A DNA stretch of 63,412 nucleotides, from contig CALXKC010000002.1 of assembly GCA_944388775.1 (NCBI GenBank), forward strand, positions 1-63,412, given 5' to 3'. The position numbers and the translations under genes were made by a program. Of the stretch, positions 14,612 through 33,144 are shown one piece after another. Every line of letters starts with the position of its first letter. The stretch's first letter is position 1. Source of the DNA: an uncultured Clostridia bacterium (GTDB taxonomy: Bacteria; Bacillota; Clostridia; TANB77; CAG-508). Under the pieces are notes generated by a model, which saw nothing but the letters and a program-made list of their open reading frames with translations, was not told the origin of the DNA and did not search any database.

Positions 14612-17600
14612 ATGAAAAATAAAATATTAAAAATAGCAACAATTATTGTGCTAATAATGACTTTAACACTAACAAATTTCCTATTTGTAGGGTCAAGTCT
14701 TATTAGTTATGCTGCAAATGCATTAGAAACTAACCATAAAAATGTCGAGTTTAATGCATATTTTACAAATGCAAATAATCAAGAAATATCTTCAGTAGAT
14801 ATGTCAAGCGAAGAAGATATTTATTTAAATATGCAAATAGAAGTAAAAAATGAAGGATATTTTAATGGTAAAATTACAATAGGAGATAGTAATTTTACTT
14901 TAAAAAGTACAGACAGTAACTATGTAAATAATATAGAAGGAAATGTAATTACTTTAAATCAGATAAATGCTAATACAAAAGCAGAAATTAAAGTAAATGT
15001 AGAATTAAATAAAGATGAAATATTTAACTTAGAAAATTTGTCTAAAACTAATATAATCAAATTAGAAGGAAAATATTATGATAGCACTGAAAAAGATATA
15101 AATATTGAGGCTGAAAGAGATCTTAAGTTAGATTTAATTGAAAATTATACTTCTGATAATATTTCAGATAGTATAGAATTAATTACTAACAAAATAACTT
15201 CAGTTGATGGCAAAGAAAAAAGAGTTATTCAATTACTTTGGAATGTTGGATTAAAAGAAAATAACTATCCAATGAAAGAATTAGAAACAAATATAACAGT
15301 GCCAACAATTGATGGTAAAAGGGCAGAAGTTACAAAAGTTGTAGATTTTAATGAAATGACATATTATGACTATACATATGATGGTTCAAATGTGACTTTT
15401 AAATTCACAAACAAACCATCTAATAATAATGAAATTCGTTGGAAATTAGATGGAACTGAAAAAATAGTATTAACATATATTTATGATAGTGATGTAGAAA
15501 TAAATAGTCAAGAAATAGTAGCAGAACAAAAAATAAAATTGTATGATGATAAAGAATTATCATATACACAAAATCTTATTTTAGATAATGAGGAAAAAGA
15601 TAATATTGTAACTATAACTTCAGTACCAGAGCAACAAAGTATTTATAAAGGAAAATTATATGCAGGATTAGAAAAAGAATATGTTATAGATACAAGTATT
15701 AACATTAATTTTGCTAAAGCAATTATTGGTGGTATAACACTTCAAGAAAGTACAAATCAAAATATAATAAAAGATGTATATACAAAAACTGTAATATCAA
15801 AAGATGAATTTGACAAATTATTTGGCCAAACAGGAAAAATAACAATTTATGATGAAAATAGCCAAGTTATTGGTACAATTACTAATTCAACTCCGATAGA
15901 TGAAAATAGAAATATAGTAATTACATATAGTACAGAGCCAACAGCAATAAGATTAGAAACATCAATACCAATTGCAGAAGGAACATTAGAAATTAAAAAT
16001 TATAAAAAATTGATTTCAAACAGTTCAAGTAATATAGTTGAATTAGGACAAATTGGATACGTAACTGAAGTTGGTTATAATAACAACAAAATAGGACAAG
16101 TGGAAAATAGTATTGATTTACAAGAAACAACTACTCAAAGTAAATTTGAAATTGATAAAAGTACTTTATCAACAATAGCAGATAATTCTGTGGAAATGAG
16201 AGCTACATTGTTAACAAATAATGAACAATATGATTTATATCAAAATCCTGTATTTAGATTTGAATTACCAGAACAAGTAGAAAATATTCAAATTACAGGT
16301 GTAGAACTTTTATATGAAAATGAATTAAGAGTAGCAAATTATACTGTTGATGGTAGAAATATTATAGTCACATTAGAAGGTAAACAAACAGATTATAAAG
16401 ATACAGCAGTAGAAGGAGCAGTATTAGTAATTAATGCAAATGTAACTATGAATAAAAAAGCTCCAACTACTGACACAGCTATAACAATGTATTATGAAAA
16501 TGAAAATGCTCATTCATATGTAGATGGTACAAGTATAGGAAGTGAAACACAAGATATTAAAATAGTAGCACCAAAAGACTTAACAATAATTAATAGTATA
16601 CCAGAAATTTCATTAGAGACTACTGGGCAAGATGAAAATGCAAGTGTAAATTTAATTACGCAAGATGTACCAAAACAATTAGAAATACATTCAGAGATAA
16701 TAAACACAACTGAAAGTAGAATGAATAATGTAAGAATACTTGGAACATTATTAACAGATAGTAGCAAAAATAATTTAGGAATTCAGATTGTAGATGGTTT
16801 GCAAATATCTAATAGAGCAGATATAACGATTTATTATACAGAAAATGAAAATGCTACAAATGATTTAAATAGTGTAGATAATGGATGGAGTAAAGAATTT
16901 ACTCAAAATGCTAAAAAATATTTGGTAATTATAGACCAATTAGAAACTGGAGAAAGTATTGAAATCTCATATAATGTACAAATTCCAGAAACATTAGAAT
17001 ATAACAAAAAAGCAGAAGAATATTATAGTGTAAGTTATGTAAGTGGAGAAACATCAGTGGAAAATACATTGAGTTCATCAATAATTACATTAGAAACAGG
17101 AATTGGACCAAAATTAGAAGCAAAATTATCTGCAACAATTGGTGGAAAAGAAATTACTCAAAATGTAAAAAATGGAGAAGTAATACAATATAATATAGAG
17201 GTTTCAAATACAGGTTCTGAAAATATAGATAATATTGAAGTAATAGGCCAAGTTCCAGATGGTACAACAATGGTAGTACCAGAAGAAGATTACGAATATA
17301 CAGGAGCTTCATATTATGAAGAATTACAAGATAGAGAATATAAAACAACAATCGAAAATATTGAACCAGGAGATGTAAAAACAGTAACATATGAAGTAAG
17401 AGTAAATTCAGATACACCTGAAGGAACTAAATTAGAGAATAAGTTACAAGTTGCATTTAATGGGGTAACTTCAGAAACAGAAGCTCATGTATTAACAACT
17501 GAAAAAGGAAATTTAAGAGTAACAGTAAAAAGAGTTACAGATAGAAGTGTAGATTTATATACAGCAGGTGTAGTTCAATACTTTGCAATTATAGAAAACA

Positions 17601-19447
17601 TTTCAGATGAAGAACAAACAGATGTAAAAGTACATACAAATTTCTCTAACAATCTAGAACCACAAAGAGTAACTTTAATTTCTGGAATGGGTGAAGAAAA
17701 TGAAGAAATTTATAGAGTAGGGGTAGATGAAGATACATCAAGTTCATATACTCAAAATGATGAAGAGATAACAGAAACAGTTGATGATGGTATTACATCA
17801 GAAGATTTAGAATATAGTGATGAAATGAATATAGGAACAATAGCAGCAGGAGAAACAAAAGTATTGAGTTATGACATGTTAATAACTAAAACAGAAGAAA
17901 ATGCAATTAATTTCTCAGTTGTAGTAGATGATGGTGAAAAAGAATATAACTCAAATGCATTATCAGATGAGGTAAAAGACTTTGCTATTGATTTAAGTAT
18001 GGAAGATAAAACAGGAACACAAAATGTAAAATCAGGAGATGTAATAACTTATAGTATTAAAGTTAAAAATGAGACAAATACACAAACTAAAGACTTAATA
18101 ATAAGAGATAATATTCCAACTCAATTAACAATTCAAAGAATTTTAATAAATGGAGAAGAATATGAAATCTCTGATACAAATAATTTAGAAATACCTATTG
18201 ATATAGAGGCAAATGGAGAAACTGAAATTGAAATACAAGCAGTAGTTAATTATTCAGAAGGAAGAGTACAATCAGAAGCAATTACAAATGTAGCCACTGC
18301 TGAAGTATATGGAGAAACAATAGCAACTACGTCAGAAATTACACATATTATTTTGGCAAATGATAATTCAGGAGAAGGCGGAAGCGGAAATGGTCAAAAT
18401 GATGTAGAAGATAATGATGTAGCAACAGGAACTAGCACAATATCTGGACTTGCTTGGTACGATGAAAATGGCAATGGTAGAAAAGATGATTCAGAACAGT
18501 TATTACGTGGAATAAAAGTAAAATTATTAAATGTTGAGACAAATAATATAGTAAAAGATACTTCAGGAAACGAATTAGAAGCTACAACAAATGAAAATGG
18601 TGTATATGTACTAGATAAAATAGGAAACGGTAGATATATAGCAATATTTGAATATGACAATTCTCAATATACTTTAACAAGATATAAAGCAACTGATGTA
18701 CCTGAAAACCAAAATTCAGATGTTTTAATGAATAATTTAACAATAAATGGTGAAAATGAACAAGTTGCTTCAACAGATATTTTAGAAATAAATAATGATA
18801 ATATTTCAAATATTAACATTGGTTTAGCTTTATTACAAAATTATGATTTAAAACTAGATAAATATGTAAGTAGAATAGTTATGCAAAATAGCAGTGGAAC
18901 AACAGTTAGAGAATATCAAGATGAAACAATGGCTAAAGCAGAGTTAGATGCAAAACAAATAAATGGAACAACAGTTATAGTAGAGTATCAGATTAAAGTA
19001 ACAAATGTTGGAGAAGTAACGGGATATGTTAGAAAAATAGCAGATTATATACCAAGTGATATGACATTTAATTCAGAACTTAATAAAGACTGGTATCAAA
19101 CAGGAGATACAGTATATACATCAATTTTATCTAATGAACCAATAGCAGCAGGAGAAACAAAGACAGTTACTTTAACATTAGTAAAAACAATGACAGAGAA
19201 TAGTACAGGACGTATGAACAATAGGGCAGAAATTGCAGAGGATTATAATGATTTAGGACTTTCAGATATTAATTCTACACCAGGAAATCAAGTGTCAGGT
19301 GAAAATGACATGGGAAGTGCAGATGTTATTCTAAGTATTAGAACAGGTGGAGCTTTATATATAAGTATTGCTGTTGCAATTTTAGTAATACTAGTAATTA
19401 CAGGATTTGTGATTTGGAAAAAAAGAAATCACATTAAAGAAATATAA
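14612..19447 (+). CDS. giant surface protein A (DUF11/CARDB-like repeats plus an SdrD-B-like module, SIRTG-TM C-terminus)
   Basis: 1611 aa with an AAGGAGG RBS and a signal peptide (..LISYA/ANA). DUF11-like repeats are readable (GEVIQYNIEVSNTGSENIDNIEV, SGDVITYSIKVKNETN). An SdrD-B-like module is present (ISGLAWYDENGNGRKDDSEQLLRGIKVKL). The C-terminus is SIRTG, a TM helix, then KKRNHIKEI. Confidence 0.85.
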   Translation: MKNKILKIATIIVLIMTLTLTNFLFVGSSLISYAANALETNHKNVEFNAYFTNANNQEISSVDMSSEEDIYLNMQIEVKNEGYFNGKITIGDSNFTLKSTDSNYVNNIEGNVITLNQINANTKAEIKVNVELNKDEIFNLENLSKTNIIKLEGKYYDSTEKDINIEAERDLKLDLIENYTSDNISDSIELITNKITSVDGKEKRVIQLLWNVGLKENNYPMKELETNITVPTIDGKRAEVTKVVDFNEMTYYDYTYDGSNVTFKFTNKPSNNNEIRWKLDGTEKIVLTYIYDSDVEINSQEIVAEQKIKLYDDKELSYTQNLILDNEEKDNIVTITSVPEQQSIYKGKLYAGLEKEYVIDTSININFAKAIIGGITLQESTNQNIIKDVYTKTVISKDEFDKLFGQTGKITIYDENSQVIGTITNSTPIDENRNIVITYSTEPTAIRLETSIPIAEGTLEIKNYKKLISNSSSNIVELGQIGYVTEVGYNNNKIGQVENSIDLQETTTQSKFEIDKSTLSTIADNSVEMRATLLTNNEQYDLYQNPVFRFELPEQVENIQITGVELLYENELRVANYTVDGRNIIVTLEGKQTDYKDTAVEGAVLVINANVTMNKKAPTTDTAITMYYENENAHSYVDGTSIGSETQDIKIVAPKDLTIINSIPEISLETTGQDENASVNLITQDVPKQLEIHSEIINTTESRMNNVRILGTLLTDSSKNNLGIQIVDGLQISNRADITIYYTENENATNDLNSVDNGWSKEFTQNAKKYLVIIDQLETGESIEISYNVQIPETLEYNKKAEEYYSVSYVSGETSVENTLSSSIITLETGIGPKLEAKLSATIGGKEITQNVKNGEVIQYNIEVSNTGSENIDNIEVIGQVPDGTTMVVPEEDYEYTGASYYEELQDREYKTTIENIEPGDVKTVTYEVRVNSDTPEGTKLENKLQVAFNGVTSETEAHVLTTEKGNLRVTVKRVTDRSVDLYTAGVVQYFAIIENISDEEQTDVKVHTNFSNNLEPQRVTLISGMGEENEEIYRVGVDEDTSSSYTQNDEEITETVDDGITSEDLEYSDEMNIGTIAAGETKVLSYDMLITKTEENAINFSVVVDDGEKEYNSNALSDEVKDFAIDLSMEDKTGTQNVKSGDVITYSIKVKNETNTQTKDLIIRDNIPTQLTIQRILINGEEYEISDTNNLEIPIDIEANGETEIEIQAVVNYSEGRVQSEAITNVATAEVYGETIATTSEITHIILANDNSGEGGSGNGQNDVEDNDVATGTSTISGLAWYDENGNGRKDDSEQLLRGIKVKLLNVETNNIVKDTSGNELEATTNENGVYVLDKIGNGRYIAIFEYDNSQYTLTRYKATDVPENQNSDVLMNNLTINGENEQVASTDILEINNDNISNINIGLALLQNYDLKLDKYVSRIVMQNSSGTTVREYQDETMAKAELDAKQINGTTVIVEYQIKVTNVGEVTGYVRKIADYIPSDMTFNSELNKDWYQTGDTVYTSILSNEPIAAGETKTVTLTLVKTMTENSTGRMNNRAEIAEDYNDLGLSDINSTPGNQVSGENDMGSADVILSIRTGGALYISIAVAILVILVITGFVIWKKRNHIKEI

Positions 19448-19468: not shown

Positions 19469-22400
19469 ATGAATAGAATGATTAACAAAACTAAAAAGAT
19501 AGTTTTAACAATAATAGCAATGGTCTTTGGAGTATTAAGCTTTACTACTGTAAGTTCAGCATATTATGTGGGACAACAACTAAATATTACCTATTCACAG
19601 TATGCAAGTAATTCTAGTATATATTGTGTTGAGCATGGCCAAGCATTAAGAGGTAGTGTAGCATATAGAATTATTTCTGAAGTTGATATAAATGGTAAGA
19701 CATCAACAGACTATACAGGAAAACAAATTACACATGATGATAATGCAAAACTTGCATATATATTATCAGCAGATAACGGAAGTAATAAAGATAGTGGACC
19801 AGTTGCAAATGGTATATGGAATTTCATGTATACTTGGATGCAAAGTGTAGGTCAATATCATGCAGGATTGTATAATGGATTTGTTAGTAACAGTAAAGGA
19901 AATAATAGTCATTTGAATTCAGAAGCAAATGATTATGCTAATAATTTAGGTAGTGCTCAAATATCTGATAATACAAATAAAAATAACATTCAGGTAAAAG
20001 CTTATCAAAGAAATGGACAAGATTATTTAAGAATAGGACCATTTAATTGGACTTTCTCTGGAACTATTACAGGAGTTACAGCTCTTGACCAAAATAGTAA
20101 TAATATAAGTGGAATGATATATAGTAGTTTCAATGGAAATAGTGAATATTGGTATAATGCAAGTGAAATAAAATCAGGAAGAGATTTTTATATATCAATT
20201 CCAGCAGATGGGAATGTTACACGAATAACTCAAATTTCAGCAACTGCTAGTATAGATGTTAAAGGTGTAAAAATATGGTTTTTAGAAGCAAAAAATGGGT
20301 ATATGCAAAACTTAATAATTAGAGAACCACATACAGGAAAAGATGAAATTACAACACCATTTGATTATGATATACCTATTCAAGGAAACTTAAGAGTAAT
20401 AAAGGTAAATGAAGATAACCATGAAATTAGATTACAAGGTGTTGGTTTTTATATCCAACATAAGCAAACTGGAAAATATGTACATCAAGATGCAAATGGA
20501 AATATTTCATATGTAGATTCAAGAGAACAGGCAACAGAATTTGTAACAGATTCTAATGGAGAAATTCTAATTAAAAATTTAATTGTTGGTACATATGTAG
20601 CATATGAAACTAAAAATCCTAATTATGGATATGAAATTGTAACAGATGGACAAGAACAGGATATTGTAGTTGACAAAACAACAGATTTTATTATTGGAAA
20701 TAAGCAAATATATGTAAAATTATCTGGATTTGTATGGGTGGATAAACAAGATCAAAAACAATGGATAAGAAATGACTTATATCATGATGATGAATTTGAT
20801 ATAAATGATATTTTATTAAATGGTATAACTGTACGACTAAAAGATAGAACAACAGGTGAAACTGTAAAAGAAATGGTAACAGGAGAAAATTCAGATTTAG
20901 GTGATGGACAATATTTATTTACAGATGTGTTGATTGAAAAATTATCTGATTACTACATTGAATTTGAATATGATGGATTAACATATACAAATGTAACACC
21001 ACACTTATATGATAATAATGGAAATGATTTACCAAATGGTTCTAAATCGGCAGAAAGTGCAGAAGAAAGAGATACATTTAATAAAGGATTTAGTGTAGTA
21101 GAAGGAAGAACACAAACAACAGGATTTACTAGGGATGAAAACGGAAATGAAAGACATCAATTATCATACAACTTTGATGCACTAGAACATAAATCAACAT
21201 TGATTAATAATGGACAATATCCAATAACAGCTAATACTGATGTTACAGAATATATAATTAGAGAACACTTTACATATGGACAAGAAGAAATTAAATATAT
21301 TAACTTAGGATTATATGAAAGAGAACAACCAGATTTAGCAATTGCCAAGGATATTGAAAATGTAAGAGTTACAGTAAATGGATATGAACATACATATGAA
21401 TATGCACAAAGATTTAATCACCCAGAAAATTATGGTGGGGATGGATTTAATGTAGGTGTTAAATTTGGTGAAAAATATGCAGCTGAACCATATAAAAGAG
21501 CAATCTATGAAGCTGATTATGAATATATAAATGAAAATGACCCAAGTAAAGAACTAAAAGTATATATTACATATAAAATAGCAATGAGAAACCAATCAAC
21601 AAATTTAATAGCTCAAATAAATAATATTGTAGATTACTATGATAGTAGATATACTATTATAGGAGTAGGTACAGGTGTAGATGAAAGAGGCAATGTAACT
21701 GGTGGACTTGAATATACAGATGGAACTTATAGTGATAATTATAAGAGAGTTATAATTAATAATAATACTAGAATAGATCCATTAACAAGTACATTAGATT
21801 CAAATGAAGGAAATGTATATGTGCAATTTGAATTAAATAGAGAAGCTGTGATAAATGTACTAAATGGACAAGAAACTTTAGACAATGTAGTTGAAATTAA
21901 TTCATATTCAATATTTGATAGCAGCGAAAATGTATATGCAGGTATAGATAAAGATTCTAATCCAGGTAGTAGCAATCCTGAAGATGAAACAACATTTGAA
22001 GATGATACAGATGCAGCATTATCTCTACAATTAGAAGTAGCAGATGCAAGAGAAATGACAGGTAAAGTATTTGAAGATGAACCAGTAGCAGAAAGTGGAG
22101 AAGATGTATCTGGAGTTATGACAGGAAAAGTAAGACAAGGTAGTGGAATTTACGAAGATGGTGAAACTGGAATTGGAGGCGTAGAAGTTACATTAACAGA
22201 AAATACAGGAAGCGGAAAAGTATATAATGCAACAACAGATGTAAATGGTGATTTCTATATAAGTGGATATATACCAGGAGACTATACATTAACATATACT
22301 TGGGGAGATCAAACTTATACAGTACAAAACTATAAAGGTACAGTGTATAATACTGATAGAGATCAAACTAATAAAGAATGGTATAAAGAAAATGTAGATA

Positions 22401-23437
22401 CACGTTATACAGATGCTTTAGATGATTATGAATTAAGACAAGCAATAGATGCAGAATTAATACATATAGAAAATAGTACACAAACGACAATTGACAAAAT
22501 GAATTCAACAACTCCAACTATGGGAATAGGTGTGGAATATGACACAACAACAACTGCGTCAACAGGAGATAGATACACATATCAAATAAGAAACATAGAC
22601 TTTGGTATTATAGAAAGAGCTAAACAAGATATATCAATAAATAAAAGAGTAAAAACATTAAAAGTTACATTAGCTAATGGACAAGTAGTAAATAATATTA
22701 CAATAGAAGATGATGGAAGCATAACAGGAGATAAAAGTAATATTACTTATATGCCACCATCAGACATGACACAACCTGCTAATGGATTTATAAGAGTAGA
22801 GCTAGATAATGAAATAATGCAAGGGGCAACATTAGAAGTAGGATATGAATTTGTAGTGACAAATAATAGTGAATTAGATTACTTATCTGAAAACTTCTAT
22901 AAATATGGAATTATAGAAGGAAATGTAGTAACAATTAGAGCAACAGGAATTATAGATTATCTAGACAATGATTGGGCATTTGATAGTAATATTAATACAC
23001 AATGGCAAATAAAAACACTAGATGAAGTAAAAGCCTTATTACAAGAAGAAGTTTATCAAACAGAAACTTCAACAATAAATGACAAAACAATTCTTTATAC
23101 AGATACTTTAAAAGACAAGCCAATAGAACCTACAAAATTTGAAAGTGTGATGTTAAATGTATCAAAAATTTTAACAACAAGTGAGGACATATCTTTAGAT
23201 AATGAAACTGAAATTGTAGAAGTAGACAAAACAGGAGGATCAGATTTAGTATCTACACCAGGTAACTATATACCAGGTACAGGCCATACAGAATCAGATG
23301 ATGATATGGCAGAAACGGTTATAGTTACACCAGCAACAGGAGATAACTTAGCATACATTGTACCAGTTACAATAGGAATAATTGCATTATTAGTAATAGG
23401 TGGATGTGTTGTAATAATAAAGAAAAAAGTTTTATAA
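19469..23437 (+). CDS. giant surface protein B (Cys-containing N-domain, Cna-B/SdrD-B-like modules, TPATG sorting-like signal)
   Basis: 1322 aa with an AAAGGAGG RBS and a signal peptide (..TVSSA/YY). It has the IYCVEHGQ motif and a Cna-B-like module (LRVIKVNED..GVGFYI...NGEILIKNLIVGTYVAYE). SdrD-B-like modules are also present. The C-terminus is TPATG, a TM helix, then KKKVL. Confidence 0.85.
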   Translation: MNRMINKTKKIVLTIIAMVFGVLSFTTVSSAYYVGQQLNITYSQYASNSSIYCVEHGQALRGSVAYRIISEVDINGKTSTDYTGKQITHDDNAKLAYILSADNGSNKDSGPVANGIWNFMYTWMQSVGQYHAGLYNGFVSNSKGNNSHLNSEANDYANNLGSAQISDNTNKNNIQVKAYQRNGQDYLRIGPFNWTFSGTITGVTALDQNSNNISGMIYSSFNGNSEYWYNASEIKSGRDFYISIPADGNVTRITQISATASIDVKGVKIWFLEAKNGYMQNLIIREPHTGKDEITTPFDYDIPIQGNLRVIKVNEDNHEIRLQGVGFYIQHKQTGKYVHQDANGNISYVDSREQATEFVTDSNGEILIKNLIVGTYVAYETKNPNYGYEIVTDGQEQDIVVDKTTDFIIGNKQIYVKLSGFVWVDKQDQKQWIRNDLYHDDEFDINDILLNGITVRLKDRTTGETVKEMVTGENSDLGDGQYLFTDVLIEKLSDYYIEFEYDGLTYTNVTPHLYDNNGNDLPNGSKSAESAEERDTFNKGFSVVEGRTQTTGFTRDENGNERHQLSYNFDALEHKSTLINNGQYPITANTDVTEYIIREHFTYGQEEIKYINLGLYEREQPDLAIAKDIENVRVTVNGYEHTYEYAQRFNHPENYGGDGFNVGVKFGEKYAAEPYKRAIYEADYEYINENDPSKELKVYITYKIAMRNQSTNLIAQINNIVDYYDSRYTIIGVGTGVDERGNVTGGLEYTDGTYSDNYKRVIINNNTRIDPLTSTLDSNEGNVYVQFELNREAVINVLNGQETLDNVVEINSYSIFDSSENVYAGIDKDSNPGSSNPEDETTFEDDTDAALSLQLEVADAREMTGKVFEDEPVAESGEDVSGVMTGKVRQGSGIYEDGETGIGGVEVTLTENTGSGKVYNATTDVNGDFYISGYIPGDYTLTYTWGDQTYTVQNYKGTVYNTDRDQTNKEWYKENVDTRYTDALDDYELRQAIDAELIHIENSTQTTIDKMNSTTPTMGIGVEYDTTTTASTGDRYTYQIRNIDFGIIERAKQDISINKRVKTLKVTLANGQVVNNITIEDDGSITGDKSNITYMPPSDMTQPANGFIRVELDNEIMQGATLEVGYEFVVTNNSELDYLSENFYKYGIIEGNVVTIRATGIIDYLDNDWAFDSNINTQWQIKTLDEVKALLQEEVYQTETSTINDKTILYTDTLKDKPIEPTKFESVMLNVSKILTTSEDISLDNETEIVEVDKTGGSDLVSTPGNYIPGTGHTESDDDMAETVIVTPATGDNLAYIVPVTIGIIALLVIGGCVVIIKKKVL

Positions 23438-23774: not shown

Positions 23775-26700
23775 ATGAAAAATATTGGTATTACGAAAAA
23801 AATACTTCTATCTATATTTGTATTAATATCAATAGTATTGATATTTGTATTTATGGTTAAAAACAGAGTTATAGCAATAGAAGAAAACAATGATGTTTTA
23901 CAAGCACTAGATATAAAAATAAATCAAGATGTAGAAAAATATTTTTATATTAGTGATAATGAAACTATTCTACAACAAGTTATTAATGTAGATATAAATA
24001 ATTTAGATTCTAATAACTTGGAAAGTATTAATTTAGAAAATGGAAGTTTGCAAATTAAATCGCCTATTATACAAAATAAGGTAGCTGGTTTTGCTACTAT
24101 TTTATGTGATGGACAAAAATTAGGTGAAGAAAATTATAAATATGACAATCAAACAGGAATAGTAAGTATTAATAATTTACAAATGACAGATATAAATAAG
24201 AAGTATAAAATTATATATGGCTATACTAATTTAAATAGAGAAGAAACACAGAAAATAGAGCTAAATTCTACTTTGACAATGAAACAAGTAGGTATGGAAG
24301 AAAAAACAGTTGAAGATAAAAAAGAAATAGATCTTGTAGAAAAAGGTAATGACGTATCTTTAGATGCAAGGATTACAGATGAGATATATAAAGGATATTT
24401 ATACGAAAATAGTAATAAAGAAACAATTTATAATGAATTATATGAAGTAGAAATATCTAATTTAAAGAATGTTAATGATGTAAGAATATCTAGTCTTGGC
24501 GAAAAATATACATATGCTGAAAATGATAATATTGTAGAAATATCTGATATTTGTAATACACAATATAAACAAACTATATTTAAAAAAGAAAATTTAAGAC
24601 AAATGTTGGGTGATGAGGGTAAAGTAGTAATTTTAAACTCAGCAAATGAAGTAATAGCACAAGTAGATATGAATACAGAAGAACAAGAAAATGGAGAAAT
24701 AGTTGTAAACTATGACAATATTGACAAAATACAAATAGTAACAACTAAGCCAATTCAAGAGGGAGTAATATATATAAAAAATACAAAAAAAGTTAACTTT
24801 AATACAAGATTAAAAAAAGAGCAATTGGAAAGAATTGAATTTTTAGAAGAATCTATAGGAGCTAATGAAAGTGTTGATACTATAAAGATGAAGTTAACAA
24901 ATCCAAAAACACAAATATTGTTTGAAACAAACAGAGAAGAACTTTCTACAATGGCAGTTAATGAAGATTTTGAAATGAATATTACTCTAAAATCAAATGG
25001 AACAGAAGATAGGTTATTTAAAAATCCGATAATAAAAATAACTTTACCAGAAGAAGTAAAAATGGTTGAACTAAAGGAAAAAAATTTATTGTATGATAGC
25101 AATTTAGAAATAGCTAGTATAGAAATGATAAATAAAGAGCTTATAATTAGGATTAATGGTGAGCAATCAGACTATAATGAAGGAGAATTGATAGGACCAG
25201 TTGTAAAATTAAAAATGAACCTTATATTGGATAGTAAGATGCCTAGTGCTGATAAGGAATTTATAGTACAATGCTTAAATGCGAATGAGATATCAGAACA
25301 AAGAAAAAATGTGAAAATAGTATCACCAAAAGATGTAATAACAGTAAATACAATTGAAGCAGCAGGAATAGAGACAGCTGGTGAGACAAATCAAGAGACA
25401 GTAAAATTGGATATAAATTCTGAAGCAAAAGAAATGGAAGTAACATCTAGAGTAATAAATAATAAGGCAGAAACTATAAAAAATGTAAATATAATGGGAA
25501 ACATTGGAACTGACGGAACATTTTTGAAAGATGATAAAGAACTTGTTAGTAACTTAAATGTAGAAATGCAATCATTAATAAATGCTTCTAATGAAAATGT
25601 AAAAATTTATTATACAGAAAATGAAAATGCAACTGAAGATTTAAATTATGCAAATAATCAATGGCAAGAAAATGTTGAAAATGTAGAAAATATAAATAAG
25701 TATTTAATTACAATAGATCAAATGGCCGAAAATGAATATATTGATTTTTCATATAGTATGGTTGTTCCAGAAAATTTGGAATATAATCAACAAGCATATG
25801 AAGGTTATAGTGTAACATATGAAGATGAAATGCAACAAACTTCAAATGAATCAAATTCTACTTTGATAGAATTAACAACAGGGCAAGGTCCAAAGTTACA
25901 AACACAATTAAAAGCTTTTGCTGGAGCAGATGAAATAGATGAAAATTCAATTATTAGAAGTGGTGGAATAATTACTTATCAGCTAGAGTTAGAAAATGTT
26001 GGAACTGAAGATGCAAGGGATGTATTGATTAGTGCAGAAGTACCTGCTGGTACTAGTTGGTATAATGATGAAAATGATAGTAGTAATATTGTAGAAATTA
26101 CTGTTGATGAAATAAAAGTTGGAGAAAAAATAACAGAGGAATTTTTCTTAAAGGTTGATGAAAATTTAACTAATCAAAGTATAATTACAATTAAAGCCAA
26201 TGTTAATTATAACAATATAGAAGAAACGTCAAATGAAATTACTAACAATATTGCTCCTGGAAAATTAACTGCTCAATTAATGTGTGTTACAGCTGAAGAT
26301 GTAACAAAAACTGTAGGAGATATTATAGAATATAAGTTAATACTTAATAATTTAGGAAATCAAGATTTAACTGAATTAAGATTAAAATGGAATATTAGTG
26401 ATAGTTATGAAATAGTAAATCAAACTATAGATGGTAATTCTAGTGAAGTAAATGGAGAGGAAACATTAATAGATGTTTTACAAGCTAATAGTTCTATGGA
26501 AATAAGAGTATTTTTAAGAATATTAGATTTTGAAGAAAATAGTAAAATGTTAGAAGTTTCAGCACAAATACTTGATGGAAACGAATCATATACTTCTCAA
26601 GTCCATAAAATTAGGGCATATAATACAAATAATTTTGATATTGAATTATCTGCAAATAATCCAAATGGATATGTTAAAGTAGATGATGAAATTAACTATA

Positions 26701-28097
26701 ATTTAACTGTAACTAATAATAATGTAAGTGATACTTATATTATTATAGAAGATTATGTTCCAGACGAACTAACAATAAGAAGTGTATTATTAAATGGAGT
26801 AGAGCAAGAGTTTGATGAAAATCAAAATTATATAAATATATCTCCAGTAGAAATCGGTTCAGGTGAAACTATAACTTTAGAAATAAAAACAGTAGTAAAT
26901 TATATCGAATATATGAGTACAGACATTTCTATACAAAATAAAGTAGAAATAATAAATGTAAATGGTAATGTTCAAGAGTCAAATACAATAGAACATATAA
27001 TAGATATGTCTCAAAATAATGTAGATGATCCAAATAATCCAAATGATCCAAGTAATCCAAGCAATCCAGGTGGCACAGAAGGACAAACATATAAAATAAG
27101 AGGAAAAGTTTGGGTAGATGGAAATAATGATGGAGCAATTCAACAAGGTGAAAGTGCATTATCAAATATTAAAGTACAATTAGTAGATATTAGAACAAAT
27201 AATGTTGTAATAAATTCAAATGGAGGAGAAATAACGGCGACAACAAATACATCTGGAATTTATGAACTATCAAATATACCAAATGGAGAATATATTGTTG
27301 TATTTGAATATGATACTTTAAGATATACTACGACAGAATACCAAAAAGAAGGTGTAGCAGAAGAAAATAATTCTAAGGCTTCTTCTATGAATAAAAAAAT
27401 TAATAATGTAGAAAAAGTATATGGTATAACTGATACAATATTAATAAATGGTGAAAGTAAATCAAATATAAATATGGGATTGATTAGATTAAAAGAATTT
27501 GACTTATCACTTAAAAAGTCAGTATCTAGAGTAATAGTACAAAGTAATAAAGATACAAAAGTATATAGCTTTAATGATGAAGAATTAGCAAAAATAGAAA
27601 TGGATGCAAAAAAAATAAATGGAGTAAATCTAATTATTGAATATAAAATAGCTGTAACTAACAATGGAGAAATAGGTGGATATATAAGAAAGATTGCAGA
27701 TTATATACCAAATGGTTATGAATTTAATTCTCAATTGAATAAAGATTGGTATCAAACAGATGGGGTATTGTATAACACAAGTTTAACGAACGAAAAAATT
27801 GAAGCAGGTGATACAAAAGTATTAACATTGACACTTACAAAGAGAATGACAGAAAATGATACTGGTTCGGTAATAAATACTGCAGAAATTGCAGAAACAT
27901 ATAATGAATTAGGTATAGATGATATAAATTCAGTACCAGGTAATAAAGCACAAGGTGAAGATGATATGAGTTCAGCAGAATTAATAATCAGTATTAGAAC
28001 AGGTAAAGTAATTATATACTTTGCAATTATTATTATGATAATTCTAATAATTGGAGCAGGAGTATATTTAATAAAAACAAAGGTTTTAAATAAGTAG
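23775..28097 (+). CDS. giant surface protein C (paralog of A)
   Basis: 1440 aa with an AAAGGAGG RBS and a signal/anchor N-terminus. It is collinear with A (IYYTENENAT, RKIADYIP, NKDWYQT, AEIAE.YN.LG..DINS.PGN). The C-terminus is SIRTG, a TM helix, then KTKVLNK. Confidence 0.85.
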   Translation: MKNIGITKKILLSIFVLISIVLIFVFMVKNRVIAIEENNDVLQALDIKINQDVEKYFYISDNETILQQVINVDINNLDSNNLESINLENGSLQIKSPIIQNKVAGFATILCDGQKLGEENYKYDNQTGIVSINNLQMTDINKKYKIIYGYTNLNREETQKIELNSTLTMKQVGMEEKTVEDKKEIDLVEKGNDVSLDARITDEIYKGYLYENSNKETIYNELYEVEISNLKNVNDVRISSLGEKYTYAENDNIVEISDICNTQYKQTIFKKENLRQMLGDEGKVVILNSANEVIAQVDMNTEEQENGEIVVNYDNIDKIQIVTTKPIQEGVIYIKNTKKVNFNTRLKKEQLERIEFLEESIGANESVDTIKMKLTNPKTQILFETNREELSTMAVNEDFEMNITLKSNGTEDRLFKNPIIKITLPEEVKMVELKEKNLLYDSNLEIASIEMINKELIIRINGEQSDYNEGELIGPVVKLKMNLILDSKMPSADKEFIVQCLNANEISEQRKNVKIVSPKDVITVNTIEAAGIETAGETNQETVKLDINSEAKEMEVTSRVINNKAETIKNVNIMGNIGTDGTFLKDDKELVSNLNVEMQSLINASNENVKIYYTENENATEDLNYANNQWQENVENVENINKYLITIDQMAENEYIDFSYSMVVPENLEYNQQAYEGYSVTYEDEMQQTSNESNSTLIELTTGQGPKLQTQLKAFAGADEIDENSIIRSGGIITYQLELENVGTEDARDVLISAEVPAGTSWYNDENDSSNIVEITVDEIKVGEKITEEFFLKVDENLTNQSIITIKANVNYNNIEETSNEITNNIAPGKLTAQLMCVTAEDVTKTVGDIIEYKLILNNLGNQDLTELRLKWNISDSYEIVNQTIDGNSSEVNGEETLIDVLQANSSMEIRVFLRILDFEENSKMLEVSAQILDGNESYTSQVHKIRAYNTNNFDIELSANNPNGYVKVDDEINYNLTVTNNNVSDTYIIIEDYVPDELTIRSVLLNGVEQEFDENQNYINISPVEIGSGETITLEIKTVVNYIEYMSTDISIQNKVEIINVNGNVQESNTIEHIIDMSQNNVDDPNNPNDPSNPSNPGGTEGQTYKIRGKVWVDGNNDGAIQQGESALSNIKVQLVDIRTNNVVINSNGGEITATTNTSGIYELSNIPNGEYIVVFEYDTLRYTTTEYQKEGVAEENNSKASSMNKKINNVEKVYGITDTILINGESKSNINMGLIRLKEFDLSLKKSVSRVIVQSNKDTKVYSFNDEELAKIEMDAKKINGVNLIIEYKIAVTNNGEIGGYIRKIADYIPNGYEFNSQLNKDWYQTDGVLYNTSLTNEKIEAGDTKVLTLTLTKRMTENDTGSVINTAEIAETYNELGIDDINSVPGNKAQGEDDMSSAELIISIRTGKVIIYFAIIIMIILIIGAGVYLIKTKVLNK

Positions 28098-28113: not shown

Positions 28114-31100
28114 ATGAAAAGGAAATTAATTATTAGTATATTGCTATTAATGAGTCTATTCTTAATATTAAATTTAAATGAAGTAAGTGCATTTTATAGT
28201 ATAGGTACTAAACTAACTGTTGATGTAGCACGTGAGACATATGCAGATCTAGATTTGAATGGACCTAATGCAATTACGTATTGTATCCAAGCAGGACAGC
28301 CTGTAAACTCTGGTACTCAATATACAGTTACTAGATATGCATATATAAATGGAAGAGCAGCTAATATTAATATTGGAAACAATGTAAATGGAAACTATGT
28401 AGATGGAGAGACAAAATATATAGAATGTGATGAAAATGCAATAATGGCATATATAATCAGTCAACCAAATGGAGACGGAAGTCAACATCAAAACGGAATA
28501 TATTCAGCAAAACAAAAAGCTATTTATAATTATTTTGCTACATGGGCTAATAGAGTGGGATTTGATGAGAATCTGGGTATAACTAGTGGTTGGTATGGTG
28601 ATGATCCAGAAGTGATAACAATTCTTAATAATGCTAGAGAATATGCTAAGTCACTAACTACACAAACAGCAAGTATAAAAAATAATAATGCTGTTGAGGA
28701 TAGCTTTAGTAAGCAATTGTATGAATATCAAGGGCAAGAATATATAAAGGTAGGACCTTTTAATTGGACATTTACTGGAAATCTTGATAGTGTAAATGTA
28801 TATGATCAAAATAATAAACAACTAAGCGTAAAATATGCTAAATATGATGGTGGAAATCTAAAAATTTCAGACAGTGCTTCTGGAATTATAAAATCAGATA
28901 CTGGTTTTTATATATTAATAAATGCAAAAGATAATGTAGAAAAAATAAGCAAAATAACAGCTAAAGTAAAAGCAACTAAAAATGTTATCAAAGCAGAAAT
29001 CATAGGTCTAGAAACAGATGCAACAACTAATGGATTAGAGGATCAAAATCTAATTGCGATTAATATGGTTGCAAATACAGAGCAACAGAATACAGAAGCG
29101 TCTTTGGAAATGAATGATATAAATTTACTAGGAAGTATAAGCGTATTAAAAAGAGATTCGATAACAGAAAATACCTTAGATAATGTTTATTTTACAATAA
29201 GAATGTTAACAGGAAGTAAAGCTGGACAATATGTTAGTGTAGATGATAATGGAAATGCTGTATATACAACTGAAGAAGCTAGAGTAAAAACAGTAAACGG
29301 ACTAATTAATATACAAAATGCATATTTTGGTGAATATGAATTAACCGAGGTTGAAAATGAAAATTATGGATATGAAGATTTACCAAGAGTAATAGGAACA
29401 TATAGTGTTAATTTGTTTAATACTGTACAAGATGATAAAAGAGTTATAAAAGATGGGGTTTACGAAATTGAATCGGCATTAGACTCTAATAAAGTTGTAG
29501 ATTTATTTAGTGCTTTAACAGACAATGGTACAAATATACAGTTATATACAAGAAATAATACATATGCACAAAGATTCTATGTTAAATATATTGGAGATGG
29601 ATATTATAAGATAATATCACTTATTCCAAATAAAAATCTAGAAGTAGCAAATGGTGGTACTGAGCCAGGTACAAATGTATGGGTTTATGAAGATAATGAT
29701 ACAGATTCTCAGAAATGGAGATTACAAGATGCTGGAAATGGATATTATAATATAATTTCAAAGCTTAATGGATTATGTTTGGATGTAGATGATGCATTGA
29801 CAGCAGATGGAACTAATATAAAAGTTTTTACTGCTAATTATTCAAATGCACAAAAATTTAAATTTAATAATTTAGACAACAGTATGGATGGTAATACAAA
29901 TGGTACTGTACAAGTGGTAGTTGAAAATACAAGGAAATATATACAAGTATCAGGATATGTATGGGAAGATATGATAAGTAGCAAATCTACAGTAAGAGAT
30001 TATTTATATACAGAGCCAGACACAGATGAAGAAAATAGAGATAGATTAGTAGCAAATGTTACAGTAAAACTTAAAGACAGTGAAGGAAATGCAGTTAACT
30101 TTAAGATATTAAATGAGAATGGAGAGTATGAAGAAGTACTAGAAACTAAAACAGATGAAAATGGCTCATATAGAATGTATGACATTTTAATTGATGAGAT
30201 AGATAATTACTATGTTGAATTTACATACAATGGAATGAGTTATACAACTGTTCCAATAGTAGATATAAGTTATAACAACGCTTCAAAAGCATTAGAAGGA
30301 GACGAAAGAACAAGATTTAACAATGAGTATGCACAAATAACAGATGATGAAAATAATGTTCAAAATGTGGGTCAAGCAAATAATAGTAATGGTGAAATGT
30401 CATATAATATAAATTATGATTATGACACACAAAGTCAAAAGAGTAGTGTTAATTATGGACCAAATTCTGAATATGGTTATGATGGCCAAAGCTTCCCAAT
30501 TAATGGAACAGACGAGCAATATTTGATAACAGCAACAACATATAATGGTTATGTATCTGCAGGTGGAAGTGGATATTTATCAGATATATATACAGCAGAA
30601 TATATTAAGCAAAATGGAATAACTGAAATAGAAAATATTAATATGGGATTGTATCAAAGAGAACAACCAGATTTATCAGTTGCAAAAGATATAGAAAGAG
30701 CAAATGTAAGTGTAGCAGGAGCAGAACATATATATATATATGCTGATAGATTTAATGAAGAATTATGGAGTAAAAATGGTTTGTATGGAGTAGAAGCAAA
30801 TGACTTAGAACCTCAAGTAAAATTCCAACAAGAAGGGGCATATGGTTCAATGTCATATACAAGGTATTTATATGCATCAGATATTATGTATAAAGATGGA
30901 GAAAATGCGGACGATAAGTTGAGTGTAAAAATGACATATGCAATTTCTGTAAAAAATCAAGCAACTACATTGAATGCTCAAATATATGAATTAGAGGATT
31001 ATTACGACACTAAATATGTTGATATTTTAGGCATAGGAACAGAAATGAATTCAGATGGAAGTATAAAAGAAGGAACAGAAATAGAATATTATGAATCAGG

Positions 31101-33144
31101 AGAAAGTATTGGAAATTATAATAAGATAGTAATTGGAGAAAATAATGAACCAATTTTAGAACTTGAACCTCAAACTAAAAAATATATTTATGTACAATTA
31201 GAAGTAAATAGAGATAATATTAAAGATATCTTAGAAGGAAATGTAGATGTTAAACTAGATAATGTAGTAGAAATAAATAAATATGGAACTACTATTGTAA
31301 ATGAACAAGGACAAGAAGAAATATATGCAGGGATAGATAAAGATTCACAACCAGGAAATATGGATGTAACAGATAGAACAACATATGAAGATGATACAGA
31401 TAGTGCACCTGGAATGATGTTAAAATTACAAGAAGAAAGACAGATAAATGGTAAAGTTTTCTTAGATGAAGATGAAAATGCATTAGATGCAGGAAAGCGT
31501 ACACATGCTGGAGTAGAAAGACAAGGTGATGGAAAATATACTAAAGGTGAAAACTCTATCAAAAATGTTCAGGTAACTCTAAAAAATCCAGATGGAAGTA
31601 CAGCACAGTTCTATAATGAAGATACTGGAAATTTTGAAGATGCAGTAACTTATACAGATGAAAATGGTGATTATACATTTGAAGGATTTGTACCAGGTGA
31701 TTATTACATAACATATACATGGGGCGGAGATATAGTAAATGGAGAAAATTCAACATATATTGATGCTGGAGGAAATGAACAAACTATAAATGTTCAAAAT
31801 TATAAGAGTACAGTCGTAAATGAAACAGTATGGAACCAAAAAGAATCAAATGATCAATGGTATAAAGATAGTTTTAAACAAAATTATGATGGAATAGAAT
31901 GGGACTCTTCAACTGGAACAGATATAAGAAATTCAGATGCAGTTGATGATTGGAACAAAAGACTAGAAATAGACAATGAGATAGGAGAAGTAACATATAG
32001 TGAAACACAAAAATTAGAAAATACTTATAATGGAAATCCAGATGGAGGAGAAACATATACTAATATTCAAATGGATTCAAATACGCCAGAATTTGTTGTA
32101 AACCTTGAATATTCAGACACAACTAAAGAAAATCCAGATACAAATACTACTGATCAAAGAGATGAATTTGAGCAAAATGCAGATGGAACATTAGCTAAAG
32201 ATCAAAATGGTGACTATATATCAAATGGATATTTTACAAATACTTTAAAAAATATAGACTTTGGAATTATAGAAAGAGCAAGGCAAATATTAGAATTAGA
32301 TAAAGAAATAACAGCAGTAAAAATAACTTTAGCAAATTCAAATGTAATAGTAAATGCTCAGTTAGAAGATGGAAAATTAAAAGATTTTGCACAATATGTA
32401 ACAGTAATACCACCTTCAAATGCAAATAGTGGACAAATAAAAGTTGAAGTAGACCAAGAGATAATACAAGGAGCAACACTTAATGTAGAATATGGATTAA
32501 AAGTAACAAATAGTAGTGAGCTAGATTATCAAACACAAGAATTCTATATGTATGGAGTGGGATACGGAGAGAATGAATCTGCACTTGTAACGTTACAACC
32601 ATCACTATTAATAGATTACGTAGATAGTAATATGTCAATAGATGATAGTGATTCTAATAGTTGGACTGGAATTGCACAAGCGGATAGAGCAGATTACTTA
32701 TATGATGTTAATAGTAACCCAGATGGATTATTGTCTAAAGATTTGGAAAGCACATTAAATAGTACAATTAGGGTTGTAACAACAGAACAATTAAAAAATA
32801 TTGAATTAAAACCTATAGGAAATGAAGTTGATACAAGTGCAACAGCGAAGTTAAATGCACAAAGATTGTTATCGAATAATGATGAAACATTCTTAGAAAA
32901 TCATGCTGAAATTATAAGAGTTACTAGAAATCACGGTGGTCCAGTATTAATTACAACACCAGGAAACTATGTACCAGGAAATACTTATACATCAGAAGAA
33001 GATGATTCAGAATCACCAAGTGTAACAGTAGTTCCACCAACAGGATTAACAACAAATACTATTTCATATATTATAATTGCAATAAGTTCACTAGGAATAC
33101 TAGTTGCAGGAATAATCTTAATTAAGAAATTTGTGATTAAATAG
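28114..33144 (+). CDS. giant surface protein D (paralog of B with an inserted ricin-type lectin domain)
   Basis: ATG at 28114 follows the AAAGGAGG RBS; the track start at 28099 (TTG) is rejected. Signal peptide ..NEVSA/FY. It has the TYCIQAGQ motif and a beta-trefoil with three Q.[WF] motifs. It is collinear with B (GPFNWTF, GLYQREQPDL, YAGIDKDSQPG, NIDFGIIERA). The C-terminus is VPPTG, a TM helix, then KKFVIK. Confidence 0.85.
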   Translation: MKRKLIISILLLMSLFLILNLNEVSAFYSIGTKLTVDVARETYADLDLNGPNAITYCIQAGQPVNSGTQYTVTRYAYINGRAANINIGNNVNGNYVDGETKYIECDENAIMAYIISQPNGDGSQHQNGIYSAKQKAIYNYFATWANRVGFDENLGITSGWYGDDPEVITILNNAREYAKSLTTQTASIKNNNAVEDSFSKQLYEYQGQEYIKVGPFNWTFTGNLDSVNVYDQNNKQLSVKYAKYDGGNLKISDSASGIIKSDTGFYILINAKDNVEKISKITAKVKATKNVIKAEIIGLETDATTNGLEDQNLIAINMVANTEQQNTEASLEMNDINLLGSISVLKRDSITENTLDNVYFTIRMLTGSKAGQYVSVDDNGNAVYTTEEARVKTVNGLINIQNAYFGEYELTEVENENYGYEDLPRVIGTYSVNLFNTVQDDKRVIKDGVYEIESALDSNKVVDLFSALTDNGTNIQLYTRNNTYAQRFYVKYIGDGYYKIISLIPNKNLEVANGGTEPGTNVWVYEDNDTDSQKWRLQDAGNGYYNIISKLNGLCLDVDDALTADGTNIKVFTANYSNAQKFKFNNLDNSMDGNTNGTVQVVVENTRKYIQVSGYVWEDMISSKSTVRDYLYTEPDTDEENRDRLVANVTVKLKDSEGNAVNFKILNENGEYEEVLETKTDENGSYRMYDILIDEIDNYYVEFTYNGMSYTTVPIVDISYNNASKALEGDERTRFNNEYAQITDDENNVQNVGQANNSNGEMSYNINYDYDTQSQKSSVNYGPNSEYGYDGQSFPINGTDEQYLITATTYNGYVSAGGSGYLSDIYTAEYIKQNGITEIENINMGLYQREQPDLSVAKDIERANVSVAGAEHIYIYADRFNEELWSKNGLYGVEANDLEPQVKFQQEGAYGSMSYTRYLYASDIMYKDGENADDKLSVKMTYAISVKNQATTLNAQIYELEDYYDTKYVDILGIGTEMNSDGSIKEGTEIEYYESGESIGNYNKIVIGENNEPILELEPQTKKYIYVQLEVNRDNIKDILEGNVDVKLDNVVEINKYGTTIVNEQGQEEIYAGIDKDSQPGNMDVTDRTTYEDDTDSAPGMMLKLQEERQINGKVFLDEDENALDAGKRTHAGVERQGDGKYTKGENSIKNVQVTLKNPDGSTAQFYNEDTGNFEDAVTYTDENGDYTFEGFVPGDYYITYTWGGDIVNGENSTYIDAGGNEQTINVQNYKSTVVNETVWNQKESNDQWYKDSFKQNYDGIEWDSSTGTDIRNSDAVDDWNKRLEIDNEIGEVTYSETQKLENTYNGNPDGGETYTNIQMDSNTPEFVVNLEYSDTTKENPDTNTTDQRDEFEQNADGTLAKDQNGDYISNGYFTNTLKNIDFGIIERARQILELDKEITAVKITLANSNVIVNAQLEDGKLKDFAQYVTVIPPSNANSGQIKVEVDQEIIQGATLNVEYGLKVTNSSELDYQTQEFYMYGVGYGENESALVTLQPSLLIDYVDSNMSIDDSDSNSWTGIAQADRADYLYDVNSNPDGLLSKDLESTLNSTIRVVTTEQLKNIELKPIGNEVDTSATAKLNAQRLLSNNDETFLENHAEIIRVTRNHGGPVLITTPGNYVPGNTYTSEEDDSESPSVTVVPPTGLTTNTISYIIIAISSLGILVAGIILIKKFVIK

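Follow-up and report, generated by a model that had tools for sequence, protein, structure and literature searches.

The locus and its genes

This report concerns four consecutive plus-strand genes, A to D, which encode very large predicted surface proteins in an uncultured Clostridia bacterium (GenBank assembly GCA_944388775.1, contig CALXKC010000002.1). The window, as the whole analysed stretch is called here, is 63,412 nt long. The four genes form two units, each composed of an a-type gene followed by a b-type gene, and they are located between minC and spoIIE. A preliminary description of the same DNA had placed four plus-strand open reading frames (ORFs) as follows, and the ORF calls agree.

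14612-19447, plus strand: gene A, unit 1, a-type, 1,611 amino acids (aa); ORF call
19469-23437, plus strand: gene B, unit 1, b-type, 1,322 aa; ORF call
23775-28097, plus strand: gene C, unit 2, a-type, 1,440 aa; ORF call
28114-33144, plus strand: gene D, unit 2, b-type, 1,676 aa counted from the ATG; ORF call

Together they span 18,533 nt or 29.2% of the window, matching the 18.5 kb and about 29% given before. The ORF of D opens at TTG 28099; ATG 28114, which has AGGAGG in front of it, is the likely start codon. Genes within a unit are closely packed: the gaps are 21 nt for A-B and 16 nt for C-D, and the AGGAGG reported for each can be seen in the sequence. The two units are separated by a spacer of 337 nt. 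The signals and small genes around them are listed below.

23468-23506, strand unspecified: hairpin with a 17-bp stem and flanking T-runs; hairpin scan
14539-14567, plus strand: sigma-70-type promoter-like site TTGAAA-17-TATAAT; consensus match only
13943-14434, minus strand: sm1, Asn-rich ORF of 163 aa
13560-13943, minus strand: sm2, Asn-rich ORF of 127 aa with a C-terminal hydrophobic segment

The hairpin lies in the B-C spacer, where a strong terminator had been noticed, and it is likely to be the terminator of the A-B operon. The promoter-like site agrees with the consensus at 11/12 positions, is among the best in a 20-kb scan and is located 45 nt upstream of A. A divergent promoter-like match for the small minus-strand ORF is found at 14503-14475. 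No convincing inverted repeats flank these promoters, and invertible or phase-variable elements were rejected on this ground. Scans of the window with Rfam and for tRNA genes gave no hits. Its G+C content is about 27% and is not atypical at the locus.

The position between minC (12865-13512, upstream) and spoIIE (downstream), both identified by Pfam, stands as first described, except that sm1 and sm2, which lie between minC and A and are divergent from A, had been overlooked. Neither has a Pfam or NCBIfam match. For sm1, 1,427 homologues were found, none of which is functionally named; the only names in the sources are 'hypothetical protein' and 'FL=1'. Apart from frames overlapping A-D, the window holds 36 ORFs of at least 100 aa, and 34 of them (A-D and 30 others) were scanned with Pfam; those at 60079-61515 and 61669-63291 lay outside the scan. 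No sortase, secretion ATPase, glycosyltransferase or obvious regulator is present among the 30 others, as had been noted, and no type IV secretion system (T4SS), relaxase or integrase gene occurs at the locus among the ORFs scanned.

Two paralogous pairs and an old duplication

In composition-adjusted BLASTP, A aligns with C over 1,278 aa at 33% identity (E = 0), and B aligns with D over 1,104 aa, also at 33% identity (E = 7e-141). The N-terminal 408 aa of B and D, aligned separately, are 31% identical (E = 1e-30). The two paralogous pairs proposed in the preliminary description are thus borne out by pairwise alignment over more than 1,100 residues each, and every peptide block quoted there for A/C and B/D is present. 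It had been allowed that the resemblance might be only low-complexity; this is ruled out by the composition adjustment together with the length of the collinear match. What A and B have in common is limited to the last about 200 residues, a membrane-proximal domain (28% identity, E = 8e-13).

The duplication itself is ancient. In a neighbour-joining tree of 129 b-type core sequences, the deepest split lies between unit 1 and unit 2. The unit 1 clade contains 82 first-unit sequences and three that were labelled second by locus order (e.g., in loci L063 and L011), and the unit 2 clade contains 44. Because the deepest b-type split separates unit-1 from unit-2 copies, the duplication predates the species radiation. 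Recent duplication or gene conversion is ruled out by the tree and by DNA repeats that are short and only 61-81% identical. These sequence relationships, together with the coupling of the two genes in other genomes, support the earlier proposal that an ancestral a-b operon was duplicated, A-B to C-D, and has since diverged; the duplication is old and common to the lineage.

A conserved site with one conserved and one variable unit

The preliminary description had suggested a search of genome neighbourhoods for the a-type/b-type pair, and this recovered it at the same site, between minC and spoIIE, in at least 79 species-level metagenome-assembled genomes (MAGs) of uncultured Clostridia. One genome per species was scanned; b-type genes were found in 133 stretches, and 79 loci were kept. 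The isolate labels of the MAGs point to gut or faecal samples, including human, mouse and rabbit, and one record is Clostridium sp. CAG:343. Synteny is nearly invariant: mreB-mreC-mreD-PBP-minC (PBP, penicillin-binding protein), two minus-strand small ORFs, a, b, usually a second a-b pair, spoIIE, a WG-repeat protein and an ORF termed orf472. The genes sm1 and sm2 are syntenic with the a-b module in nearly all related loci, and spoIIE is directly downstream in all loci that reach that far. A single a-b pair is present in five loci (L003, L033, L039, L071 and L084). Adjacency of a and b is strict in every complete locus. Measured over 73 first pairs, the median gap is 20 nt; over 23 second pairs, it is 16 nt. 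Shine-Dalgarno-like sequences are found in 86/96 split pairs.

In spite of this retention, the giant proteins change faster than their housekeeping neighbours, as judged from the median identity to the window protein across loci:

MreB: 90%
MinC: 82%
PBP: 75%
B: 60%
A: 48%

The two units differ further from each other. In matched species pairs among 44 genomes, b-type cores show a median pairwise identity of 41.9% for unit 2 vs 63.8% for unit 1, and unit 2 is the lower in 100% of species pairs. The closest relative of the window, locus L006, is 97-100% identical to it in MreC, MreD, PBP, SpoIIE and A, and 91.5% in B. In unit 2 of the same locus, C is at most 31% identical, the D stalk 57%, and the D head gives no match, so that cassette replacement or strong diversification at unit 2 is indicated. 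Heads of unit 2 range from 334 to 852 aa, and 41 of them are missed by a unit 1 head profile; most of the unit 2 heads shown keep the [YFW]C-phi-zeta and [ILV]GPF motifs. Unit 1 a- and b-type proteins have a near-constant length among relatives. In these sequence comparisons, unit 1 is the conserved unit and unit 2 the hypervariable one.

Some loci depart from the two-unit pattern. L078 has an extra b-type gene (12796-18096) with a 741-aa head containing nine cysteines, downstream of an a-type and a b-type gene joined in a single ORF, and copy number and head type therefore vary beyond two units. In L044 (2762-5906), L062 (3814-6344) and L038 (4461-6411), about 2-3 kb of extra sequence lies between the small divergent ORF and the a-type gene.

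The b-type proteins have a thioester-domain-like head

For B, 837 relatives were found, of which the best 120 are almost all full length and almost all metagenomic. The b-type proteins start with a head followed by a long stalk, and D has an additional lectin.

19550-20383, plus strand: B head, aa 28-305, class II thioester-domain-like; AlphaFold2 (AF2) model, Foldseek and motifs
19625-19627, plus strand: B Cys53 codon, in IYCVE, matching the motif [YFL]C-phi-zeta
19802-19819, plus strand: B VANGIW, TQXXphiW-like; motif match
20306-20308, plus strand: B Gln280 codon, in MQNLI, matching the motif phi-Q-zeta-phi-phi
aa 23-340 of D, plus strand: D head, followed by a SpaA domain; motifs
28282-28284, plus strand: D Cys57 codon, in TYC57IQ
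29044-29046, plus strand: D Gln311 codon, in DQ311NLI
29461-29862, plus strand: ricin-type beta-trefoil lectin insertion in D, aa 450-583; PF14200 and PF00652

The AF2 model of B aa 28-420 (predicted local distance difference test, pLDDT, 89) consists of a three-helix lobe, a beta-sandwich and a long beta-hairpin, followed by the SpaA domain. The top PDB match of the head model in Foldseek is 6fwv, BaTIE (E = 2.7e-13, 411 columns), with about 50 sortase pilins ranked behind it. 6FWV serves as the type structure for class II thioester domains (TEDs), which are characterised by the motifs [YFL]C-phi-zeta, TQXXphiW and phi-Q-zeta-phi-phi (PMC6194298). Counterparts of all three, the second in a looser form, can be located in B and in D in the correct order. 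The spacing between Cys and Gln in B is 227 aa, compared with 171-204 aa in solved class II TEDs (PMC6194298). C53 is the sole ectodomain cysteine of B, and Gln280 is placed in the loop between two long hairpin strands of the model, which matches the class II description. Among 89 related domains from the fetched loci, the head Cys is kept in 87/87 aligned domains and the Gln in 88/89. The TQXXphiW site is looser: it reads VANGIW in B (Gln to Ala, Trp kept), KQKAIY in D (Gln kept, Trp to Tyr) and VQNAIW in many orthologues, and across loci the Gln site is occupied by Q in 41 domains and by A in 36; Trp is found in 82/87. From model and motifs taken together, the head of B and D is probably a sequence-divergent, class II-like thioester domain. 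The sub-family to which these heads belong has about 300 clusters at 50% identity; the head is almost always N-terminal, and the full-length proteins are about 1,200-1,900 aa long.

Behind the head, Pfam recognises in B a SpaA/CnaB domain (aa 306-405) and an SdrD_B domain (aa 891-974). The SpaA model PF17802 scores 36.3 bits in B and 34.0 bits in D against a cutoff of 23.1, and profile matches to CnaB-type pilin domains reach E = 2.3e-21. Among orthologues of unit 1, proteins P0141-P0147 (about 1,195 aa) have no SpaA domain after the head, as seen in the alignment of P0142 and, for the others, from Pfam lists, and P0182 and P0236 (about 1,425 aa) carry two SpaA domains in tandem; the length of the b-type stalk is therefore modular. 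The lectin insertion in D matches PF14200 (RicinB_lectin_2) with E = 5.6e-38 in three stretches, and PF00652 and NCBIfam lectin models match as well. It has no counterpart in B, and its sequence points to glycan binding by D.

The a-type proteins are predicted rods

More than 1,000 relatives of A were found, and again the best 120 are almost all full length and almost all metagenomic. The DUF11 or Cna-B/SdrD-B-like modules attributed to the four proteins are confirmed by Pfam, as DUF11/CLIPPER and SdrD_B in A and C, and as SpaA with SdrD_B/CarboxypepD_reg in B and D. A has three matches to DUF11/CLIPPER (PF01345; 48.7 bits, the best stretch being aa 850-947) and C has four (54.8 bits), against a cutoff of 24.6. 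The NCBIfam model TIGR01451 gives 51.4 bits for A and 40 bits for C, and SdrD_B (PF17210) matches once in each above its gathering cutoff, at aa 1279-1375 in A. CLIPPER/DUF11 is an isopeptide-containing stalk domain of fibrillar adhesins, and some DUF11 domains are without the isopeptide bond (bioRxiv 10.1101/2025.04.25.650565). Both A and C are free of cysteine.

The first 815 mature residues of A (aa 36-850) have no family match. Their AF2 model (pLDDT 88.9) is all-beta, an unbroken string of beta-sandwich domains. The top Foldseek match is to the Ig-like domains of PrgB, at 9% identity; the legs of integrin alpha, the MG domains of alpha-2-macroglobulin and the C-domains of antigen I/II are also among the best matches. 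No distinct adhesive head was recognised in A, since aa 36-850 are Ig-like throughout in the model. A and C are accordingly predicted to be rods with some twelve or more Ig-like stalk domains, of the kind found in fibrillar adhesins.

C-terminal ends and anchoring

Signal peptides, a C-terminal helix and a basic tail had been assigned to all four proteins, and a hydrophobicity scan agrees: each has an N-terminal hydrophobic signal segment and ends in an xxxTG motif, a membrane helix and a basic tail.

19334-19447, plus strand: sorting-signal-like cassette of A (SIRTG 19334-19348, membrane helix, KKRNHIKEI tail)
23327-23437, plus strand: sorting signal of B (TPATG 23327-23341, membrane helix, KKKVL tail)
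27990-28004, plus strand: SIRTG of C, then helix and tail
33031-33045, plus strand: VPPTG of D, then helix and tail

The motifs are LPXTG variants and are placed within 17-45 residues of the C-terminus in all four. The LPXTG_anchor model TIGR01167 scores 16.9 bits in A against a cutoff of 15.9 and 14.6 bits, below cutoff, in D; B and C have no match. The xxxTG motif, the helix and a K/R tail are kept in 240 homologues (the best 120 each of A and B). The b-type motif is TP[ANSP]TG, with TPATG in 65/120 best homologues and with P, T and G invariant in one b-type alignment, and the a-type motif [SG][IVL][RK]TG is also conserved, with SIRTG in 57/120 best homologues. Just ahead of the helix, A, B, C and D have the same conserved cassette (…STPGN…E-[ND]-D-x-x-[SA]-A-[DE]-x-[IV]-[IL]…); we take it to resemble the final strands of a CLIPPER-like domain, from the typical C-terminal pattern of DUF11. 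In C. difficile, SrtB splits the motif (S/P)PXTG between T and G. The C-terminal motif of the preliminary description would be better described as a variant of a sortase-type sorting signal than as something unknown, given TIGR01167, the conserved xxxTG and the likeness to SrtB substrates. Considering these motif variants, the specificity of SrtB and the sortase-free adhesin TIEpLS20, anchoring by a sortase is plausible by analogy for the b-type proteins and uncertain for the a-type proteins.

Single-ORF forms of the pair

In 26 loci the a-b pair is one ORF (a~b) of 2,560-3,187 aa; in 24 of them it is the second unit that is joined, and in L076 and L078 it is the locus's first pair. The junction is of the same construction in 26/26: a-type xxxTG, membrane helix, short K/R loop, b-type signal peptide, AxA-like site and b-type head. 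A 'Rosetta stone' fusion that would prove a complex is thereby ruled out, and since helix and signal peptide are kept, the single ORF shows co-expression and no fusion of ectodomains. The precursor would be a membrane-spanning hairpin with both large parts outside, and signal peptidase could cut it into the same two proteins that the split genes yield. These forms also suggest that the helix at the C-terminal end acts as a genuine stop-transfer anchor, that a and b are co-translated, and that the a-then-b order and equal amounts are important, or at any rate tolerated.

Comparison with known systems

The statement that no described system matches was too strong. B and D come closest to class II TED/TIE adhesins, as they have the TIE layout with a BaTIE-like predicted fold and Cys/Gln, and the nearest known counterparts of A and C are CLIPPER/DUF11 fibrillar stalk proteins. 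The comparison of B and D with TIE adhesins is made because BaTIE is the best fold match and because the Cys and Gln motifs are near-invariant. Like BaTIE (6FWV), SaTIE and EfmTIE86, B and D have, in the same order, a signal peptide, a Cys...Gln head, a CnaB/SpaA-type stalk and an xPxTG motif, and their head likewise has a beta-sandwich insert and a long hairpin in the AF2 model. They differ from them in that no sequence profile matches a Pfam TED or any solved TED, in that the b-type gene is constantly paired with an a-type gene, and in that the thioester here is a predicted one. In addition, mature BaTIE is about 520 aa long and ends in an LPATG sorting motif, whereas B and D are 2-3 times longer, contain a large stalk region without family match and have TPxTG/VPPTG. 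B and D thus share the Cys and Gln motifs, the predicted fold and the architecture with TIE proteins and are not matched by the curated sequence model. A and C resemble CLIPPER/DUF11 fibrillar adhesins in PF01345 matches, length, signal peptide and sorting end (bioRxiv 10.1101/2025.04.25.650565), but A has no recognisable adhesive head and its C-terminal motif is non-canonical.

Other systems are more distant. Compared with C. difficile SrtB substrates, the b-type TPxTG/VPPTG resembles (S/P)PXTG, although the first residue is T or V in the window instead of S or P; the helix and basic tail are alike, and the a-type S[IV]xTG resembles NVQTG of CbpA. Sortase-assembled pili (SpaA, RrgB, BcpA and EbpB/C) have similar CnaA/CnaB-type domains, which the SpaA domain matches both in fold and in sequence, but A-D are far larger, each has a full anchor, and neither a pilin motif nor a linked pilus sortase was found; none of A-D qualifies as a sortase-assembled pilin. 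PrgB of pCF10 and antigen I/II share the Ig-like stalk fold with the N-terminal 815 aa of A. This is a likeness at fold level only (9% identity), and A has no polymer-adhesin or V-region head; moreover, PrgB is located on a plasmid, whereas the window locus is chromosomal core. TIEpLS20 (gene 34 of pLS20), in which a class II thioester domain is followed by Cna domains, is sortase-independent and so a precedent for such display. It is plasmid-borne, has a role in conjugation and lacks LPXTG and a C-terminal helix, while the window proteins have xxxTG and a helix. The building blocks are of known kinds. New features are that a and b are obligately paired, that the pair occupies one fixed position throughout the lineage, that one unit is conserved and the other hypervariable, that the hairpin-precursor form recurs, and that Pfam does not see the head sub-family.

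Interpretation and alternatives

We lean towards the view that the locus consists of two tandem two-gene operons, each encoding a pair of long surface proteins, namely an a-type rod and a TIE-type b adhesin. The N-terminal signal would direct each protein to Sec export, after which signal peptidase would remove it, and the C-terminal helix and basic tail would keep the protein membrane-bound. A sortase whose gene lies elsewhere may then cut the T/G bond (in TPxTG or VPPTG of the b-type, and [SG][IVL]xTG of the a-type) and link the protein to peptidoglycan; where it does not, the helix itself would be the anchor. The a-type protein would serve as a long inert rod. The b-type head, sitting on its SpaA/CnaB-type and SdrD-B-type stalk, would form a Cys-Gln thioester (C53-Q280 in B) and capture a nucleophile of the target covalently, and in D the ricin-type lectin would add glycan binding. 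Tight coupling or a single hairpin ORF would ensure that a and b are made together and in about equal amounts. Unit 1 may be a conserved housekeeping copy for a conserved target, and unit 2 a rapidly diversifying, exchanged copy for variable targets; the variable head of unit 2 fits a changing target specificity.

Several points weigh against this explanation. For the head, the Foldseek TM-score of the BaTIE match is low (TMq 0.32), which comes partly from the multi-domain query. The B and D heads have no Pfam or NCBIfam match, the TED model included, even at E <= 1-10; 0/30 divergent head relatives match a TED model; and a head profile retrieves no sequence from the PDB at E <= 10. Attempts to prove a thioester domain from sequence, with Pfam, NCBIfam and PDB profile searches, thus failed. 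B of the window also has Ala in place of the Gln of TQXXphiW; the residues of this motif are not essential, and its Gln is unneeded for bond formation (PMC6194298). Concerning anchoring, the a-type motif has no Pro, SrtB of C. difficile leaves the similar NVQTG uncut in vitro, TIEpLS20 needs no sortase to function, and there is no sortase among the 34 window ORFs scanned. Finally, the role of the a-type proteins is read solely from their fold and their position beside b.

The preliminary description had called a heteromeric surface fibre or adhesin of A-type and B-type subunits a reasonable hypothesis. In its fuller form, this is a covalent fibre or pilus with an a-type shaft and a b-type tip, joined by a sortase or by the b thioester. 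The strict a-b adjacency in every complete locus, the conserved tight coupling, the single-ORF a~b in 26 loci and the membrane-proximal domain common to A and B (28%, E = 8e-13) are all in its favour. The fold of the B head and SpaA region also resembles sortase pilins, and pili with thioester tip adhesins such as Cpa are known (PMC6194298). However, there is no [YFW]PK[NDQ] or PKN pilin motif in A, B, C or D, and no class C or other sortase is found among the scanned window ORFs or in the syntenic flanks of the Pfam-annotated loci L001-L005. A signal peptide and a full C-terminal anchor are present in each partner separately, and the single-ORF junctions keep the anchor helix and signal peptide instead of fusing the ectodomains. 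The proteins are also 1,300-1,700 aa long, against about 250-600 residues for the solved pilin chains in the fold search. With pilin motif and locus sortase not found and the anchors separate, the fibre has no direct support, and we regard it as unlikely.

The proteins might instead form a non-adhesive surface coat, a brush or S-layer substitute held by the helix without a sortase, in which Cys and Gln serve stability or self-crosslinking. Such a coat would agree with a module that is core and syntenic in at least 79 species and adjoins cell-shape genes, with the near-constant length of unit 1, with an a-type motif that is unproven as a sortase site, and with the precedent of a thioester adhesin that functions without a sortase. 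Against it stand the divergence of A (48%) and B (60%), which exceeds that of their neighbours (75-90%) and is in the manner of exposed, interaction-driven proteins, the hypervariable heads of unit 2 and the lectin in D. Thioesters, moreover, add little stability and have been proposed for covalent adhesion (PMC6194298). A coat is accordingly improbable in our judgement.

A further idea is that a and b make up an obligate two-component organelle of an undescribed kind, a covalently cross-linked fibre or mesh independent of a pilus sortase. The two would be inserted side by side, in many genomes as a single polypeptide that crosses the membrane as the anchor-helix/signal-peptide hairpin and is afterwards cleaved. 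In it, the b thioester might react with the a-type partner or with neighbouring fibres, and unit 2 would supply exchangeable specificity cassettes. We consider this quite unlikely.

Proteins of the spore surface, in the exosporium or an appendage, are suggested by position only, with spoIIE immediately downstream. The upstream neighbours are vegetative cell-shape and division genes, a sigma-70-type promoter match (11/12) directly precedes A, and Sec signals with sorting anchors fit export to the wall, the bearing of which on spores is drawn from general knowledge; a spore role is very improbable. That the genes encode mating or aggregation adhesins and belong to an integrated mobile element, as pCF10 has PrgB and pLS20 has TIEpLS20, is scarcely credible: PrgB is the best fold match of the A stalk and conjugation in B. 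subtilis makes use of a class II thioester adhesin, but the site is fixed on the chromosome between housekeeping genes in at least 79 species, G+C is not atypical, and T4SS, relaxase and integrase genes are absent from the locus among the ORFs scanned.

Neighbouring genes

The minC gene follows mreBCD-PBP and has no adjacent minD or minE, and no MinD-like protein is present among the 30 other Pfam-scanned ORFs. This orphan position is kept in related loci. At 3239-4246 on the minus strand, a YhgA-like transposase gene (PF04754) lies between a PcrA/UvrD helicase and an M23 peptidase; it is likely an insertion specific to the window genome, because L003 has small ORFs there, including a Coat_F gene. 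Downstream, a 472-aa ORF without Pfam match (37517-38935) comes after spoIIE and the WG-repeat protein in four loci reaching there, at 64-68% identity. At 54870-60059, a predicted AAA-ATPase with a PD-(D/E)XK nuclease (PF09820/PF08011) is followed by a 1,112-aa SNF2-family helicase carrying a bacterial SNF2-associated domain; the two may be a defence or mobile-element pair.

Significance

The locus is relevant mainly to specialists in the gut microbiome and in Gram-positive surface proteins. The single-ORF a~b is a natural case of two secreted proteins in one membrane-hairpin precursor, and it bears on how paired surface proteins stay in equal amounts. Should the heads prove to be true thioester domains, an entire sub-family of them escapes Pfam, and the lineage has a device for covalent attachment with one conserved and one exchangeable specificity. 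Since about 18.5 kb at a fixed site is devoted to these four genes, their products are likely the main surface contact of the lineage with host, mucus or other microbes. The hypervariable unit 2 could serve to mark strains and is a candidate determinant of host or niche specificity.

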